Shown here piece after piece: positions 47,895-58,369 of a stretch of 64,000 nt of DNA. How positions within the stretch are numbered: position 1 is the first letter of the stretch; each line of letters starts with the position of its first letter. The DNA is taken from the NCBI GenBank assembly GCA_965219385.1, contig CBDCNM010000002.1:1234936-1298935 (forward strand). Reading direction: 5' to 3'. The notes under the pieces were generated by a model. That model was not told where the DNA came from. It saw only the letters and a list, made by a program, of their open reading frames with translations, and did no database searches. Origin of the DNA: Candidatus Latescibacterota bacterium (lineage in GTDB: Bacteria > Latescibacterota > UBA2968 > UBA8231). A program made the position numbers and the translations under genes.

Positions 47895-48314
47895 TACCGT
47901 CGGCCCTGCCTGGGGTGGGCGTCTGCGCCCCATCGCCGCACGGACCGACCCCGCGTCCATACGGCGTTATCTACAAGGCGGCGGGCTAGCGACTCAACCT
48001 CCGCCGATTACGCCGCCCCGCCCCCCACCCCAGCAGGAGTGGGATTTCGCCGCATAAGCCCAGGCACGATACGCTATGGCTGCGGCCGCCCCTCGGCCTC
48101 CTCGAAGGCCATCTACGCCCTGCCCCTGCCCCTCTCGAACAAGCCCTGGCCGCCAGCGGGCCGGCCGAGTCGACAGCAGACGCCCTGCACAGGCCGCCCC
48201 CCAGCAGGGCCGACGTCCTAGCCAAGAGCGCCGCGACGCACAGCCAGGCCGCTCCAAAGACACCCACACCGCTTGACCTGACCCCCTAAAAAACCCTTTA
48301 TAATTCCTAAGTAC
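47895..48314 (+). mobile_element. IS91/ISCR 3' end (oriIS side), copy 1
   Basis: Close match to 51200-51366 plus 52487-52759; ends TTTATAATTCCTAAGTAC. Confidence 0.75.
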
Positions 48315-50886: not shown

Positions 50887-51366
50887 CAGCAGGCCGACTA
50901 CAGCGCATTGATGCCGATCACCTTACCTTCCGGCTCAAAACCACCTGGTCGGATGGGACGACCCACCTGCTGGTGTCGCCATTAGAGTTGATTGAAAAGC
51001 TGGCCGCCCGCATCCCACCGCCCCGAGTCAAGCTAGGGCGTTATCACGGCCTCCGGGCGCCCAATGCCCGCGCTCGCAGTCAGGTCGGGCCCGGTCCGCC
51101 GTCGCCCGCAACGTCTACCGCGCCTGGAGCGTCTGGTCCACCTATCCACCCCCATCAGGCTCCCTTGGGCGGCTCTATTGGCTCGGGTCTTTGCCCTCGA
51201 CGTCACCGTCTGCCCCGCCTGCGGCGGACGTCTGCGCCTCATCGCCGCCCTGACCGACCCCGCGTCCATACGGCGTTATCTACAAGGCGTCGGGCTAGCG
51301 ACCCAACCTCCGCCGATTACGCCGCCCCGCCCTCCCCCCCAGCAGGCGTGGGATTTCGCCGCCTAA

Positions 51367-51581: not shown

Positions 51582-52486
51582 GAGTCTCTAACAAAACCTT
51601 GGAATCGCGTATAGGCTTCATTATATTCTTATCCTCTTCGGTATTGCTTCTACCGTCTTGATATGGAGGTGTTTTTGATGGCCAAGCCGTTACTCGACGA
51701 TGGGTTATGGGCCTTGATTGAACCGGTTTTGCCCCCCGTAACCGTTGGCCCCCAAGGGGGGCGGCCTCGGCTGGATAACCGTAGGGTGCTGACCGGCATT
51801 CTCTTTGTGCTCAAGACGGGTATCCCTTGGGAGTATTTGCCTCAAGAGATGGGGTGCGGTTCGGGGATGACCTGTTGGCGTCGCCTGCACGCTTGGCAAC
51901 AAGCCGGGGTCTGGAAAAGAGTCCATCATATCCTGTTGAACCGACTGAGGGCCGCCGACCGGATTGATTGGTCTCGTGCGGTGGTCGATAGTGCCTCGGT
52001 GCGGGCGGTTGGGGGGGGGCGCACACCGGTCCCAATCCGACGGACCGCGGCAAACCCGGTAGCAAACACCATGTAATCACCGATGCCCAAGGGGTGCCGT
52101 TGGCGGCGGGGGTGACGGGGGCCCATCGGCATGATGTGACGCAGCTGTTGCCGTTGGTGGATCGCATACCCCCGGTGGCCGGTCGGGTCGGCCGCCCGCG
52201 TCGTCGGCCGGATCGGGTGCAAGGGGATCGGGCCTATGATTCGCAAGCCCATCGGCGCGCCTTGCGTAAGCGGGGCATCGGCTCGGTGTTGGCTCGGCGA
52301 GGGCAAGCCCACGGCAGCGGCTTGGGCGTCTATCGGTGGGTGGTGGAACGAACGTTGGCATGGTTGCACCAATTCCGTCGGCTTCGAGTCCGCTGGGAGC
52401 GACGAGGTGATCTCCATGAAGCCTTTCTCGACATCGGATGTATTCTCATCTGTTGGAAGTACCTCAAAGAGTTTTGTTAGGGCCTC
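51582..52486 (+). mobile_element. IS5-family element (IS427-like, two ORFs)
   Basis: TIR GAGTCTCTAACAAAAC / GTTTTGTTAGGGCCTC with TA flanks. ORFs 51678-52076 and to 52480 join at a G9 run (52011-52019); motifs GDRAYDS and RWVVERT. Confidence 0.9.
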
Positions 52487-52851
52487 TAAGCCCAGGCGCG
52501 ATACGCTCTCGTTGCTTGGCCGCCCCTCAGCCGATAGGGTCGGGCCTCGAAGTGCATCTACGCCCGGCCCCTGCCGCCCTCGCACAAGCCCTGGCCGCCA
52601 GCGGGCCGGCCGAGTCAGCCGCAGAAGCCGCGCACAGGCCGCCCCCCAGCAGGGCCGACGCCTTATAGCCAAGCGCGCCGCAACGCACAGCCAGGCCGCT
52701 CCAAAGACACCTACACCGCTTGACCTGACCCCCTAAAAGGCCCTTTATAGTTCCTATACATACTCGAAGAAGACGTGCTCCAGTCGATAAGACACGCGGC
52801 GTGGGGCGTCTCTGATCAGTTGGAATATCCGCGTAGAGATAGTACGCTGAG

Positions 52852-54347
52852 ATGAAAAAAGTTTTGCTGTGCTGGGTCGGCACTACAGATTTGCGTGCCT
52901 CACAAGGAGATGATGTTGGCGAGGGTCCTATCGCACAGGTAGTGGAAGAGCTCGGGTTTGACGAGGTATTTTTGATTACAAACTACCTATCCGATGACCG
53001 TGTAACTACGTACGTCGAATGGGCAAAAAAAAGGAGCTCGACGCCGTACCGACTATATGAGGAGGAGCTTTCAAGTCCGACCCACTTTGGCGAAATTTAC
53101 GAAGCTGCAGTGCGCGTTTGCACAGTGGCTTTAGGCGAACAGCGCGATCAAGTGGAATTGACTTTTCACCTTAGTCCTGGTACGCCGGCAATGGCCGCGG
53201 TGTGGGTCATCTTAGCGAAAACGCGCTTTCCCGCTGAATTGATCGAGTCTTCAAGAGAATACGGCGTTCAAACGGCATCTGTTCCCTTCGATATTTCGGC
53301 AGAATTTTTGCCCGACCTTCTGCTCAAACCCGACGAGCAGCTCCGCTCGGTCAGTGCAGAGAAACCCATAGAATCGGCAAATTTTGCAGACATACACTAC
53401 CGAAGTCCGATTATGGCAAGTTTGGTCGAAAGAGCGCAGCGTGTCGCGTTTCGGAACGTTCCCGTTTTGCTCGAAGGCGAATCCGGCACCGGGAAAGAAC
53501 TTTTTGCCCGCGCTATTCACCAACACAGCCCGAGAAGGGATGAGCCATTTATCGCGGTGAACTGCGGTGCAATTCCGCAATCTCTTGTGGAATCCGAACT
53601 GTTTGGACACGAAAAAGACGCGTTTACCGGCGCAAATGCCCCGCGCAAAGGTCATTTTGAGTCGGCCAATGGCGGTACGCTCTTTTTGGATGAAATCGGC
53701 GAGTTGCCCAAAGATATGCAGGTGAGATTGTTGCGCGTCCTCCAAGAAGGCGAGGTCGTCCGGCTCGGTACATCCAAACCCATCAACGTAGATGTACGCA
53801 TTGTGACGGCAACAAACCGGACTCTCATTGAGGAAGTAGGCGAAGGACGATTTCGAGAGGATTTGTTTTATCGGATTGCAGTGGCCTATCTCAAATTGCC
53901 TCCCTTGCGGGACCGCCCGGGGGATTTGGGTCTGCTGATTGACCATTTGATCGAACAGATCAGTCAGGAAAGCGAGGAACAGCCTGGATATCGACGTAAA
54001 AAATTTCCCCTAACGCAAAAAATATTCTCCTAAACCACGATTGGCCGGGCAATATACGTGAGTTGCAAAACACGCTTAGACGTGCAATGGTGTGGACAGA
54101 CGGCGAAATTCTCAAAAAACAAGATATTGAAGAGGCCTTCTTACCCATCTACGATAAGAGGGACGGAGATATATTGAACCGCCCATTAGGTGGGGATTTT
54201 AGCCTGCCTGATCTCATTAGCGAAGTCGCCAGACATTATCTTCAGCGTGCCGAGGAGGAATCTAAAACGAAAACAGAAGCTGCAGAACGGTTAGGATTGT
54301 CTAATCGTCAGACGTTTAACAACTGGAAAGAGAAGCACAAGGTATAG
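52852..54347 (+). CDS. sigma54-dependent activator with N-terminal CARF/RtcR-like domain, frameshifted at about 54000
   Basis: N-terminal WVGTTDL...[13 protein letters not shown]+ motifs [38 protein letters not shown] and the Fis-type HTH lie in another frame after an A6 run. Confidence 0.88.
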
Positions 54348-54378
54348 GAATTTCAAAAAAATCGACTTTTGGGTAAGG

Positions 54379-54395
54379 TTGGCACGAAATGTGCT
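54379..54395 (+). promoter_or_regulatory. sigma54 (-24/-12) promoter
   Basis: TTGGCACGAAATGTGCT with exact GG-N10-GC spacing, about 30 bp after the activator stop. Confidence 0.8.
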
Positions 54396-54453
54396 TACTT
54401 ATGGGGACAGCACGTTAAGACAACCACCAACCCGAAAATAGAAAGGACTGATT

Positions 54454-54615
54454 ATGGCTAGAAGAATCCGCAGCGACGCACGGGTAGGAACAGTCGAGAA
54501 AAAGTTGGGCATTGGGAACAGTATCACGAATCCCAGTGGGCGAAATGCCCGCTCCGATAAAAAATTTGGGAGCCTGCGCAGGAGTTGGGAAAAGTCTAGC
54601 AAGAAGCGTTCTTAG
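54454..54615 (+). CDS. Small basic protein, 53 aa (not in the ORF track)
   Basis: GAAAGGA RBS; MARRIRSDARVGTVEKKLGIGNSITNPSGRNARSDKKFGSLRRSWEKSSKKRS. Confidence 0.75.
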   Translation: MARRIRSDARVGTVEKKLGIGNSITNPSGRNARSDKKFGSLRRSWEKSSKKRS

Positions 54616-54704
54616 GACCGCTTGGGGATCGAAACTATCCCACGAACCGGAAGGACCAAAATCAAATGAAGTGTCGTAAATCCTATATGAAAGGAGGTGA
54701 TTCT

Positions 54705-54779
54705 ATGACAAAATGGCTACCGCTTGTCTTTCAGCTAGCTATTATCGTCATAGACAACTGGCCGTCGAATCGGCGATAG
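54705..54779 (+). CDS. Hydrophobic peptide, 24 aa (not in the ORF track)
   Basis: AAGGAGGTGA RBS; MTKWLPLVFQLAIIVIDNWPSNRR. Confidence 0.65.
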   Translation: MTKWLPLVFQLAIIVIDNWPSNRR

Positions 54780-54793
54780 CAGCTTGAACGAGC

Positions 54794-54827
54794 ATCAGGG
54801 GACGGGGGCCTTCTTCGTCTCCCTGAT
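54794..54827 (+). terminator. Hairpin closing the small-ORF unit
   Basis: ATCAGGG-GACGGGG-loop-CTTCGTC-T-CCCTGAT. Confidence 0.55.
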
Positions 54828-54834
54828 AAATTTC

Positions 54835-54863
54835 TTGACAACTTCACGTATTTTTTATATGCT
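54835..54863 (+). promoter_or_regulatory. sigma70 promoter for the ATPase gene
   Basis: TTGACA-17 nt-TATGCT. Confidence 0.75.
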
Positions 54864-54948
54864 AGACAGATCCCGAATAAACCGAGTCATTTCTAAACTC
54901 AAGAGTTCATAACTTATTTGTAACTCTTTTACCAATCTGTAAGAAATC

Positions 54949-56454
54949 ATGGCTAATTTAGATATTAAAAATATTGTTGAAACTTTTGGGAAGGGACTTG
55001 ACCCTGAGAAGGACCCGTCGCTTAAAAGGTTTATGGAAAGGCTTGTGGAAAGCTTTTTAGGAGAAGTATTACAGCCTGAAAATTTCAATAAGCTCAATCA
55101 ATACAATATTACATCTATCACCATTGAAAATTTCAAATGCATTGACGATGCTGTGACCATTCCCATTCGCCCCATCACCTTATTGTTTGGCAAAAACAGT
55201 GCGGGCAAATCGACGGTGTTGCAGGCACTTGACTATTACCACAAAATTTGGCAGGACCAATCTGACAAAATTGGAACCACATTATTCGGTTTGGAAATGA
55301 GTGGTGGCTATACTATCGATTTTAGAGATTTTCGTTCCTTGGTACATCGTCATGAGTTAGATCGAAAAATTCGAATCCGCGTCGAATATACCAGCGTTAT
55401 TAGTGACATATCACAAAATAAATTTTATCAATGGAGCGAAATAGTAACAGGCTGTAAAGAGAAATATCCCGATAATTTAGAGTCATTATTAATTGGGTGG
55501 AGCATGAATGGTGAAGAACTGGTGCATCTCAGTTTGAAACTAGAAGAAACATATGATGATACAGTCGATGGCTCTAATGGTGAGGAATTGATTCGACAAG
55601 AAAAAGAAGATTTCCCAGAGGATTTTCCATTTGAAATATATGTAAATGCTGCTAATACTAATCAGGCTCAGAGGACTTTTATAGATCTCTACTTATCCAT
55701 GCTTAATAATTCTTCGTCATTTGAATCGCAAGAATCTACAAACAGATCTGGCAGTGATCCTTTTGGTTTCGACTTTCTACATTTGGGCCCATTCCGTGAA
55801 GTGCTCCAAACGTCCGATACATCATGGAAAAAAGGACTCGCATATCTGGCCAGCCGAATGCTCAAACTATTTGGACACGAAATCCAAACGCCCGATACAT
55901 CATGGGAAAAAGGACTCGCAGCTTGGAAGGTACTTTCAAGAGACCCTAAACTGGTCGAAAAAACAAACCACTATATACAAAATGTTTTGAATCTTGGATA
56001 TAGTATCAATTGTCAGAAACACAACTCCACTGATCTTGGACAATGGCCTCGTCTCCATGATGAAAACAATGATATAGATGTTCGTCTCTCAGATATTGGT
56101 GTTGGCATTGCCCAAGTTATTCCCGTTATAGTCGGGGCATTAGATGACGGCCATAGCCCTAGAATCTTTGCAGTTGAACAGCCAGAACTTCATATTCATC
56201 CCGCCATTCAAGTGGCCTTGGGCGACGTGTTCATTGACAGTATAAAGAGCATAAAGAGCAGCGATTATTCTAATACTGAGGTTTTTGATAAGTTGTTTGA
56301 TAAGTCTTTTTCTATGCTGGAAAATAACAATAAAAAACTCCTCGACAGAATAAAAAACCTCGATGATTCTGCTATTGATATCGGCATGATAGAAGACAAA
56401 ATGATAGAAGACAAAGATATCCTTGATGTTGAAGTGTCCTTAGAAGCCGTCTGA
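54949..56454 (+). pseudogene. ABC-type (AAA_15/AAA_21-like) ATPase, 3'-truncated by IS5
   Basis: IENFK, Walker A GKNSAGKS, signature DIGVGIAQVIP, Walker B EQPELHIHP. No H-loop follows and the stop codon lies inside the IS end. Confidence 0.8.
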
Positions 56455-57347
56455 AAACCCTCTGATGTAGCCGCATTTGAACGGGCGTACTCATCGAGCC
56501 ATATTCAGGTTTCACCACAAACTCTGAACAGAAAGGCTTGTATGATGAGTACACCGCGTATGCAATATGCCACCGATCTAACCGATTGCTGCCCGCGCCG
56601 CGCTGGCGGCTTCACGGTCCGGGTCGGCCGCCGCGGGATCGACGCCAGCTTGTCAACGGCCTTTTGTATTTGAACAAGACGGGGTGTCCTTGGGCGTTGT
56701 TGCCTGCTTGTTTTGGGCCGTGGAAAACGGTGTATGATTACTTTCGTCGCTGGAGCCTGCAAGGGGTCTGGCCGCTGGTGTTGGATCGGCTGACTAAGAG
56801 GGAGCGCCGCCAGAGCGGCCGGGCTGCGATGCCGTCGGCTGGCGTAGTCGATAGTCAGACGATTAAGACCGCAACGCATGGTAAAACAACCGGTTATGAC
56901 GCCGGCAAAAAGATCAAAGGCCGCAAACGGCATCTGTTGGTGGACCCGTCGGGTTTGCTTCGACAGGTGGTGGTCACCGCCGCCGATGTCGAGGATCGAG
57001 AGGGTTTGAAGCAGGTGTTGACCCGCTTGAAGGCCGCCGGCGTGGCTCGGTTACGCAAGCTGTGGGTTGATGGCGGCTACCAAGGCGAGGCCATCCGAAC
57101 GTGGGTGGCCAACCAAAAAAAGACGCACAAAATAGACTTGGAAGTCGTCGCCAAACAAGGCTCCGGATTTACCGTAGTTAAACGCCGGTGGGTCGTCGAG
57201 CGCACGTTTGCGTGGTTGATGAATTTTCGCCGACATGCCCGAGATTATGAGGTCTTGACCCGCCATAGTGAAGCCTTGATCCAGATTGCCATGATCCACT
57301 TGCTACTTAAACGAATCAAATGAAAATTAGAGTTTTCAGACGGCTTC
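56443..57347 (+). mobile_element. IS5-family element (IS1031-like)
   Basis: Perfect 15-bp TIR GAAGCCGTCTGAAAA; motifs VDSQ, GYDAGKKIKGRKRH, DGGY, RWVVERTFAW. The N-terminal YATDLTD is out of frame. Confidence 0.92.
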
Positions 57348-57352
57348 TAACG

Positions 57353-58369
57353 ATGATCCATGAATATGCACTGGAACCCGAACTTGTTGTAACATGGGGT
57401 GATCTTACACTCTGTGACCACTTCATTGATCAATTTGGCTTTAATCTAGACGGCGAAGTAACTGGCCGCGTGGTAGCTCAATACCCTGAGGATTGGGCTA
57501 AAAAAGTTCGTGACACACTCACAGAAACTCCGCTTACGCCTGTACAGAAAACACGCGTAGTGGAATTGTTGAAGTATATGATGGAGAAAAGACAACCAAA
57601 AGTCGTCCGTTCTTATACTTCTATATTTTGGGATCCAAAAAAACCATGGCTTGAAAATGCTGAAGAGGAGAACATTAGTCGTCCTTTTCACGCGATTCTT
57701 GCCAGCGACAATCCAAGAGAAAACCCACGCGTGATACTCGGAAACAGTGTATTCCCCATAGATCCTAGAAATCAACGACCTCCACTTTGGCGCGTGTCTC
57801 GTGAAAAACCGGTACCTAGGACTGCGGCTTTGATCGCAACACACCTCGAGCCAATGCTGCGTTGTGCAACGCGAATCCTTTTTGTTGATCCACATTTTCG
57901 TGCACGACCCCCGAGATGGCAGGAGCCTTTAAGAAGATTTCTAAAAATCATTTGCGACGGTAGCCGTGAGGTCACACTCGAATACCACGTCTCAGCCTGC
58001 TACAGAGAAGCACCGACTTGGTACAAATTTCTCGATGAATGCAAACAGGCCCTCCCGTGTCTCATTCCTCGTGGTTTCACGCTTACTATTCGCCGTTGGA
58101 AGGATTGGGATGTTGATGAGGAACTTCATGACCGCTATATCCTCACCGATATCGGTGGCGTAGCGATTCCTAAAGGTCTCAGCGAAAAAGGCCGAGACAC
58201 AATTGATATCTTACGTTTAAGCATCGAAACTTGGCAGCAACGATTAGAAAATTACGGTTATTACTATTACGACGCTCCTGCTTTTTCCGTATCAAAGCCA
58301 AAACCTCCTGCATTTGATCCAGGTGATCCCGCAGAAACAGTAACTATCTCCGGCTGTTGTGATGCATGA
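57353..58369 (+). CDS. Hypothetical protein with possible PLD-like nuclease domain
   Basis: Starts MIHEYALEPE; contains ILFVDPHF and LHDRYILTDIGG. Confidence 0.7.
   Translation: MIHEYALEPELVVTWGDLTLCDHFIDQFGFNLDGEVTGRVVAQYPEDWAKKVRDTLTETPLTPVQKTRVVELLKYMMEKRQPKVVRSYTSIFWDPKKPWLENAEEENISRPFHAILASDNPRENPRVILGNSVFPIDPRNQRPPLWRVSREKPVPRTAALIATHLEPMLRCATRILFVDPHFRARPPRWQEPLRRFLKIICDGSREVTLEYHVSACYREAPTWYKFLDECKQALPCLIPRGFTLTIRRWKDWDVDEELHDRYILTDIGGVAIPKGLSEKGRDTIDILRLSIETWQQRLENYGYYYYDAPAFSVSKPKPPAFDPGDPAETVTISGCCDA

Follow-up and report, generated by a model that had tools for sequence, protein, structure and literature searches.

What does a sigma-54 activator with an RtcR-like sensor control when no RNA-repair genes lie beside it? 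The question is raised by a gene at positions 52852 to 54347 (plus strand) of the window, the whole 64,000-nucleotide stretch of DNA that was analysed. An earlier note, made from the letters of this stretch, had seen here an undescribed circuit whose output would be two products of 53 and 24 amino acids (aa), encoded just behind the activator. We compared the locus with its homologues in 132 genomes of the same class and in other lineages, asking which parts of the arrangement are kept.

The activator gene and its family

The gene encodes a CARF-AAA+-HTH sigma-54 activator that PADLOC assigned to the RtcR_PspF2 family (PDLC01995), with E-values of 6e-154 for the N part and 3e-19 for the C part. 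The match begins at residue 2, and the PspF2 model gave 512 bits versus 185 bits for the RtcR model. The PspF2 label reportedly stems from Makarova et al. 2020. That the N-terminal domain is CARF/RtcR-like, as first proposed, was borne out: residues 1-131 matched both CARF4 (E 2e-14) and Csx1/Csm6 (E 6.5e-10), one relative matched Pfam RtcR (E 8e-4), and a profile of 22 N-terminal domains matched E. coli RtcR with 92.8% probability in hhalign. A PDB profile search with the CARF domain returned no match. The AAA+ core belongs to PF00158 (E 3e-70). Like RtcR of E. coli and Salmonella, the activator joins a homologous CARF domain to an AAA+ core, here with 35% identity. Unlike RtcR, it has a co-directional promoter past its own stop and no rtcB or rtcA nearby (the sole rtcB copy lies ~940 kb away, in line with what had been noted), and it scores below the cut-off of NCBIfam NF038308 (298 bits for the 393-aa piece scored, against 650). 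The 11-residue strand-4 loop of its CARF domain contains no basic residue. Since the passages on this family in Makarova et al. 2014 (PMC4012209) remark that RtcR-family domains mostly lack a basic strand-4 residue and that a different ligand is possible, this is a mild argument against cyclic oligoadenylate (cOA) as the ligand.

The activator occurs in 33 of the 132 class genomes, and its nearest database relatives are assigned to Ca. Latescibacterota. The genome of the window carries rpoN. The motifs WVGTTDL and HLSPGTPAM had been read in one frame from 52852. Both motifs are there, but the single intact frame is not: the frame stops at 54033, giving 393 aa where intact relatives have 498-508 aa, and the other 115 codons, among them those for sensor II (WPGNIREL) and the HTH, lie in a different frame that runs to a TAG at 54347. 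The split corresponds to the loss of 1 nt within the A-run at 53998-54003. A contig of run X1, which may be the source sample of the assembly, matched the frameshifted sequence without gaps (53227-55181), and so did a contig of run X3, which is from another study (53671-54132). In run X4 both alleles were found, the one with the extra A in 33 of 48 depth units. An error of long-read assembly was therefore ruled out. Programmed slippage at the A6 run was also considered and is unsupported, because the run is short, there is no in-frame X XXY YYZ heptamer, and the A-run itself is interrupted in many relatives.

Walker A/B and the arginine finger are present in the window's activator, and sensor II is found in the shifted frame only; among the loci, all of these motifs are retained wherever their patterns were read. 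The GAFTGA motif behaves differently. The window has DAFTGA at this position, and among the activators of the 33 class genomes GAFTGA is intact in 17, i.e., in only 4 of the 20 that are followed by the ATPase gene described below but in all 13 others, so that it is altered in 16/20 versus 0/13, counts in which kin are not independent. Seven different variants occur among the 16 altered motifs, which suggests repeated erosion, with the same reservation about kinship. Frameshifted or deleted activators were also found in other genomes. With its frameshift, its altered GAFTGA and an ATPase whose tail was removed by an insertion sequence, the window's copy of the circuit is, judged by its sequence, dead or dying.

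The sigma-54 promoter and a candidate enhancer

A sigma-54 -24/-12 site of the form TGGCACG-N4-GTGCT, with AAAT as its spacer, lies at 54380-54395 on the plus strand and begins 32 nt past the activator stop, where the earlier note had placed it at about 30 bp. The strict pattern has 19 occurrences in the 5.8-Mb genome. In order to see whether the position is kept, the range from -25 to +400 nt relative to the activator stop was searched in the 33 class genomes and in 17 loci of other lineages. A site was present in 38 of these 50 loci, compared with 0 of 150 in-gene control windows and 0.3% of shuffles, and it was retained in all 20 ATPase-linked loci. Where whole modules are repeated in tandem, the site is duplicated with them. 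From its position, transcription would be expected to start near 54406.

Two further observations concern such sites. In genome G000, three near-identical sigma-54 sites (AAAGTGGCACGAATTTTGCATA) occur at C1:706364, C2:3266370 and C2:1190988 (minus), and two of the three shortly precede other large enhancer-binding genes. The activators of one family (f3; L229, L230 and L232-L234) are intact and have a perfect GAFTGA with no sigma-54 site downstream; they are followed by HAD and GH3 genes.

A candidate enhancer (UAS) was found within the activator gene itself. At 54000-54026 there is an imperfect inverted repeat with 9-bp arms and a 9-bp spacer, ~355-380 bp before the sigma-54 site. Conservation at third codon positions, scanned in 23 non-redundant intact activator genes, showed a single peak (0.73, against a mean of 0.48 and sd of 0.05 over 410 windows). 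The peak falls on the codons for KKISxxARN, where the DNA reads as the inverted repeat ATTTCT-N9-AGAAAT; arginine is encoded by AGA at the repeat in 13 of the 23 genes, though AGA accounts for just 75 of 768 Arg codons. The motif is unique in the genome, and similar A/T repeats lie ~150 bp upstream of four sigma-54 sites that stand apart from the gene end. We therefore read the intragenic repeat as a candidate for the activator's enhancer. In the window it adjoins the frameshift.

Genes and signals behind the promoter

The next large gene, at 54949-56454 (plus strand), encodes an NsnB-like ABC/OLD-type ATPase (AAA_15; PADLOC NsnB, E 1e-26). Its alignment with a DUF3696-bearing relative of 593 aa extends to residue 465 of the latter, and the last ~130 residues, DUF3696 included, are lost at an IS5-family element (56443-57347, plus strand; ~27 near-full copies in the genome), whose junctions were found in contigs of other runs. 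An ABC ATPase with DUF3696 was present in 5 of 5 relatives scanned, DUF3696 being above the cut-off in 2. Beyond the element, at 57353-58369 (plus strand), lies a gene for a 338-aa NsnC-like partner, a predicted nuclease. Its C-terminal domain has a PLD/MIT_C fold with an HDR motif (Foldseek PLD family, E 1e-4, with MITD1 and Nuc also listed); its N-terminal domain, where NsnC has an inactive PIN domain, is poorly modelled (pLDDT 40-60). The partner protein of a relative matched MIT_C (E 3.6e-4), weak PADLOC NsnC matches were obtained in 2 of 13 cases, and a PDB sequence search with the partner profile gave none. Within the ATPase, a 26-residue internal duplication (DTSWxKGLA twice; window 55810-55920) is absent from relative L005. 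A second IS5-family element, with a two-ORF transposase and ~25 genome copies, lies at 51600-52490, just upstream of the activator and within a repeated element that recurs at 47896-48278. The ORF at 51064-51366 presumably represents the end of an IS91-type transposase.

A defence context had been suspected, and the class genomes agree with it: in 20 of 33 the first large gene behind the activator encodes the ATPase, in 4 it encodes HsdR, and in 1 it is a membrane-type gene before a restriction-modification (R-M) fusion. The rest comprise one contig end, one rearranged locus and six genomes in which the stretch covered has neither a sigma-54 site nor a defence gene. In the loci of other lineages, the gene that follows the site is HsdR, an RmuC-like gene (labelled by eye) or, in three loci (L018, L019 and L026), the same ATPase type. 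ATPase-partner pairs are also found in tandem arrays, in some cases with a second sigma-54 site. Second modules were observed at L014:11100-11900, L274:930-1800 and L017:7850-8150, with their own sigma-54 site, a C-type peptide (see below), a hairpin and another ATPase; they carry a 103-aa GIY-YIG-like ORF (Pfam E 1.4e-4). At L226:1908-2888 (G092) the promoter faces a nameless 327-aa protein whose first residues resemble peptide A, followed by a 1341-aa methylase-specificity-ATPase fusion.

The pair resembles part of the Menshen system (NsnA-NsnB-NsnC; PMC12065111). As in the Menshen passages considered, an AAA_15 + DUF3696 ATPase is followed by a two-domain partner, and the partner ends in a PLD/MIT_C-like domain with an HDR motif, as in PB-PLD1; the same source predicts that the DUF3696 part of NsnB binds NsnC. 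Unlike Menshen, the pair stands in tandem arrays behind a CARF activator and has no DUF262 protein NsnA: none of the 8 DUF262 matches lies in the locus, the nearest being ~12 kb off on the other strand. Because the Menshen systems were, as described in PMC12065111, gathered from NsnA seeds, pairs of this kind fall outside that census.

Between the promoter and the ATPase gene, the window has two small ORFs. ORF B (54454-54615, plus strand) encodes 53 aa with a net charge of +12 and two RxxRSD repeats, and ORF C (54705-54779, plus strand) a 24-aa peptide; their SD sites are GAAAGGA and AAAGGAGGT, respectively. ORF C is also readable as 37 aa from a leader start at 54666, an ATG 39 nt before C (leader 54666-54704, plus strand) that is invariant in 11 of 11 aligned leaders; it is in frame with C in the window, and in relatives it is out of frame or overlaps the stop of B. 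Both ORFs, noticed at the outset for their strong ribosome-binding sites, proved to be conserved and constrained beside homologues of the activator. Among 10 sequences each, pairwise pN/pS was 0.15 for B and 0.54 for C; for peptide A, which is absent from the window, it was 0.37 (7 sequences). The pairs compared are not mutually independent, and a similar ratio is obtained with one alternative frame of C. In-frame stops are absent from A, B and C, and the other forward frames have stops. In the 20 ATPase-linked loci, the slot between promoter and ATPase holds C in 12, accompanied by B in 8, by A in 5 and by a fourth peptide, D, in 2; one locus has a GIY-YIG fragment and 7 have no small ORF. 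C was matched in 16 of the 132 class genomes; one match was dropped as a chance hit inside a 454-aa frame, and all of the remaining 15 genomes carry C inside activator-ATPase islands, with two copies broken. Peptide A, found in 6/132, is strongly amphipathic (0 of 500 shuffles were as strong).

B is distributed differently. It occurs in 13 of the 132 class genomes, 9 times behind the activator, once in a decayed locus and 3 times elsewhere; two of the last three have a sigma-70-type promoter and then another hydrophobic peptide. In these two (L102 and L103, from G039 and G045), B stands under TTGACA-17-TATATT; next come a hydrophobic peptide of 40 aa, which is conserved, then a hairpin and an acidic ORF of 58 aa; the units sit behind a large HTH protein, and one copy is beside a HEPN/RES gene. 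The B family has 143 representatives at E<=0.001, some with Lys/Ala-rich tails or an amphipathic N-terminal extension. It has no family name in Pfam, PHROG or NCBIfam, and among annotated elements B was found in 1 phage record and 6 plasmids, always hypothetical or unannotated. Among 89 distant loci, found via a sub-family alignment and not the window's clade, there was no CARF activator, and none of the 37 non-redundant ones had a sigma-54 site, so that B cannot be regarded as a constant component of CARF circuits. In L187 and L189-L193, B genes occupy the short gap between terminase large subunit-like and portal-like phage genes, and in L138, L142 and L179 B follows a gene resembling anaerobic ribonucleotide reductase (labels by eye in both cases). 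Other distant copies lie near HEPN/RES or XhoI R-M genes. At L154:293-4125, in an unrelated genome, B precedes a DUF262 (GmrSD N+C) gene, behind which lies one for an NsnB-like ATPase, an order like that of Menshen; this locus apart, no NsnA was found in the scan of cluster representatives from 37 loci, which covered 49 of 62.

The fold of B was predicted confidently (AF2 pLDDT 89), and the top structural matches are mostly ubiquitin-like beta-grasp domains, the best with Z 4.4 and none with a Foldseek E below 0.3; 1 of 76 members matches Pfam ubiquitin (E 0.0013). In contrast to these domains, B has ~50 aa and no C-terminal Gly-Gly. PDB sequence searches with the B and C profiles gave no match, and the ESM Atlas returned only unnamed clusters for B and nothing above 0.77 for a C variant. 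B is more likely a small basic nucleic-acid binder. C, with its 13-residue hydrophobic core, P6, D-N-W and basic tail, is probably a membrane peptide. It resembles the Fst/Ldr type I toxins, as treated in the sections of PMC7472228 that bear on them, in being short, with a hydrophobic core, a charged tail, a strong SD and a downstream hairpin, and in that its conserved P precedes the conserved W by 13 residues, as in Ldr; the W stands between the hydrophobic stretch and the charged tail in 11 of 12 members. It differs in that it lies behind a sigma-54 promoter and that most members have PXXXQ for the PXXXG whose G is reported there to be essential. Neither fitting direct repeats nor a fitting minus-strand promoter for a convergent antitoxin was found at the C locus, Pfam, PDB and the Fst model gave no match, and the profile match to LdrA had 4.6% probability. 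C was rejected as an Fst/Ldr member. Assembled contigs of RNA run X10 include a 180-nt one that overlaps B, and three others, all short, lie in the cassette; contigs alone are no sign of transcription.

A conserved RNA hairpin (54794-54827, plus strand; -24 kcal/mol, z -3.3) follows ORF C, as it follows each peptide in the cassettes. Covariation, with two-sided changes in 8 of 14 pairs against 0 of 500 shuffles, confirmed it as a hairpin; its supposed role in closing the unit was not upheld, for a U-tract is missing and the hairpin is absent from the output of the terminator scan, so an intrinsic terminator on either strand was rejected. It may act as a stabiliser, a processing site or an attenuator. 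An Rfam search gave no match. A stem that would hide the SD before C found no support; it is 87% paired, yet shows no covariation. The sigma-70-type promoter assigned to the next gene, TTGACA-17-TATGCT, is present at 54835-54863 (plus strand). The number of such sites in the region is no higher than expected (2 found versus 2.3), and it is by conservation only that this one appears to stand above chance: TTGAC is retained in 12 of 13 aligned loci, and a strict -35/-10 in 7 of 33.

Readings of the locus

Beyond the anatomy, conservation, coding constraint and breakage documented above by sequence comparison, we propose, with a probability of about 0.6, that the locus is a portable inducible-defence cassette with accessory micro-genes. 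The CARF domain would bind a ligand that signals damage or infection, by analogy with RtcR a cyclic-phosphate RNA end. The activator would then bind the enhancer inside its own gene and open the sigma-54 promoter, and the transcript would carry B and C and read on into the ATPase-nuclease pair; read-through past the hairpin is proposed because the hairpin has no U-tract. Such induced read-through would lift the pair above its sigma-70 basal level. B, as a basic nucleic-acid-binding protein, and C, as a membrane peptide, would be accessory cargo at the operon head, a slot that elsewhere is filled by BrnT-like toxins, GIY-YIG or other small genes. Since the ATPase follows in 20/33 class loci and 7 of those 20 have no small ORF, we take the ATPase-PLD pair as the constant output and the small ORFs as a variable cassette. 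The suggestion that the 53-aa and 24-aa products form the output thus fails: the promoter elsewhere faces HsdR, RmuC-like or ATPase genes, and the B family mostly occurs with no CARF activator. On this comparison B and C are genuine accessory genes that do not define the output.

The cassette reading is supported by the PspF2 family match, the promoter in 38/50 loci, the ATPase or HsdR genes next to it, and the recurrence of the ATPase type in the three loci of other lineages. It is also supported by the restriction of C to these islands, the tandem modules with their own sigma-54 site, the enhancer-like constraint, the PLD fold with the HDR motif known from PB-PLD1 of Menshen, the presence of rpoN and the published predictions. 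Against it stand the ATPase's own sigma-70 site and the six class genomes that have neither sigma-54 site nor defence gene, and, as no NsnA is in the locus, the trigger of the ATPase is not accounted for. The altered GAFTGA of 16/20 versus 0/13 activators indicates that activation through sigma-54 may have weakened or disappeared in the very lineage that bears the micro-genes.

This last point leads to the idea that the sigma-54 wiring is vestigial or inverted, the activator now being a repressor or decaying, the pair being expressed from sigma-70, and the micro-genes being passengers retained for small benefits of their own. The seven GAFTGA variants, the broken activators in the window and other genomes, the B units under a sigma-70-type promoter with no activator and the 37 distant B loci with no sigma-54 site are all in keeping with it. 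We consider it unlikely, however, given a sigma-54 site that is kept in 20/20 ATPase-linked loci and duplicated with tandem modules, and given the retained Walker A/B, arginine finger and sensor II. About as unlikely, in our view, is that the micropeptides are the real induced effectors, with C, A and D as type-I-toxin-like membrane peptides freed from antisense and controlled by sigma-54, the hairpin ending or protecting a short transcript, and the ATPase pair expressed separately from sigma-70. The Fst/Ldr-like layout of C, the strong SD sites, the hairpin after each peptide, the amphipathic A, the purifying selection and the sharing of one slot by several peptides would fit such a role. The 7/20 loci with no peptide at all, the two broken C copies, the missing U-tract, the Q in place of the G reported as essential in the passages of PMC7472228, the low probability of the LdrA match and the absence of Pfam, PDB and Fst-model matches argue against it.

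A displaced RtcR that controls the distant rtcB, with the local promoter and ORFs incidental, is very improbable. The genome does have an rtcB and the sensor domain is related to that of RtcR, but the PspF2 model clearly outscores the RtcR model, the local promoter is conserved across phyla, and the sole genomic occurrence of the enhancer-like motif is within the activator gene. A more speculative extension, which we regard as something of a long shot, is that the locus derives from Menshen, transcriptional sensing by CARF having replaced the DNA-sensing NsnA. The interchangeable peptides (membrane-active A, C and D, basic B, and GIY-YIG) would then be first-line effectors or triggers of NsnB-NsnC, and an enhancer written into the activator gene would let the switch move whole.

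The inducible-defence cassette that we prefer is not undescribed in its principle, contrary to the earlier note: activator class and defence link are found in PADLOC and in the relevant passages of PMC4012209 and PMC11090510. The former describes an R-M-linked RtcR-like family as predicted activators of downstream R-M genes, and the latter RtcR homologues that head CoCoNuT superoperons, which have internal promoters and begin with small toxins. Our locus shares with that family the domain order, the absence of a link to rtcBA, the position at the head of same-strand defence genes and the predicted sigma-54 activation. It differs in having an NsnA-less NsnB/NsnC-like pair and micro-genes in place of Type I R-M or CoCoNuT, in its promoter, enhancer candidate and micro-genes, which are absent from those passages, and in that the window's copy is a pseudogene. 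The wiring was predicted in 2014 and 2024, and the locus is a variant of it, not a new principle. What is new here are three or four micropeptide families, a widespread and nameless basic family of about 50 aa, the candidate enhancer within the activator gene and the erosion of GAFTGA in 16/20 ATPase-linked activators. In the literature searched, whose supplements may contain one, we found no description of the micro-genes, of an NsnA-less pair behind such a switch or of the intragenic enhancer, nor an experimental test of CARF-sigma-54 control of defence genes, a prediction that is now a decade old.

For experiments the copy in the window is unsuitable. The locus family as a whole offers a compact test bed for this control, in which the promoter is mapped, the output is short, an enhancer is proposed and variants of GAFTGA occur naturally. 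It also draws attention to Menshen-like pairs that lack NsnA, and adds conserved micro-genes for which there is no family model, one family of which comprises more than 100 clusters and is found beside defence genes and in the gaps between phage genes.
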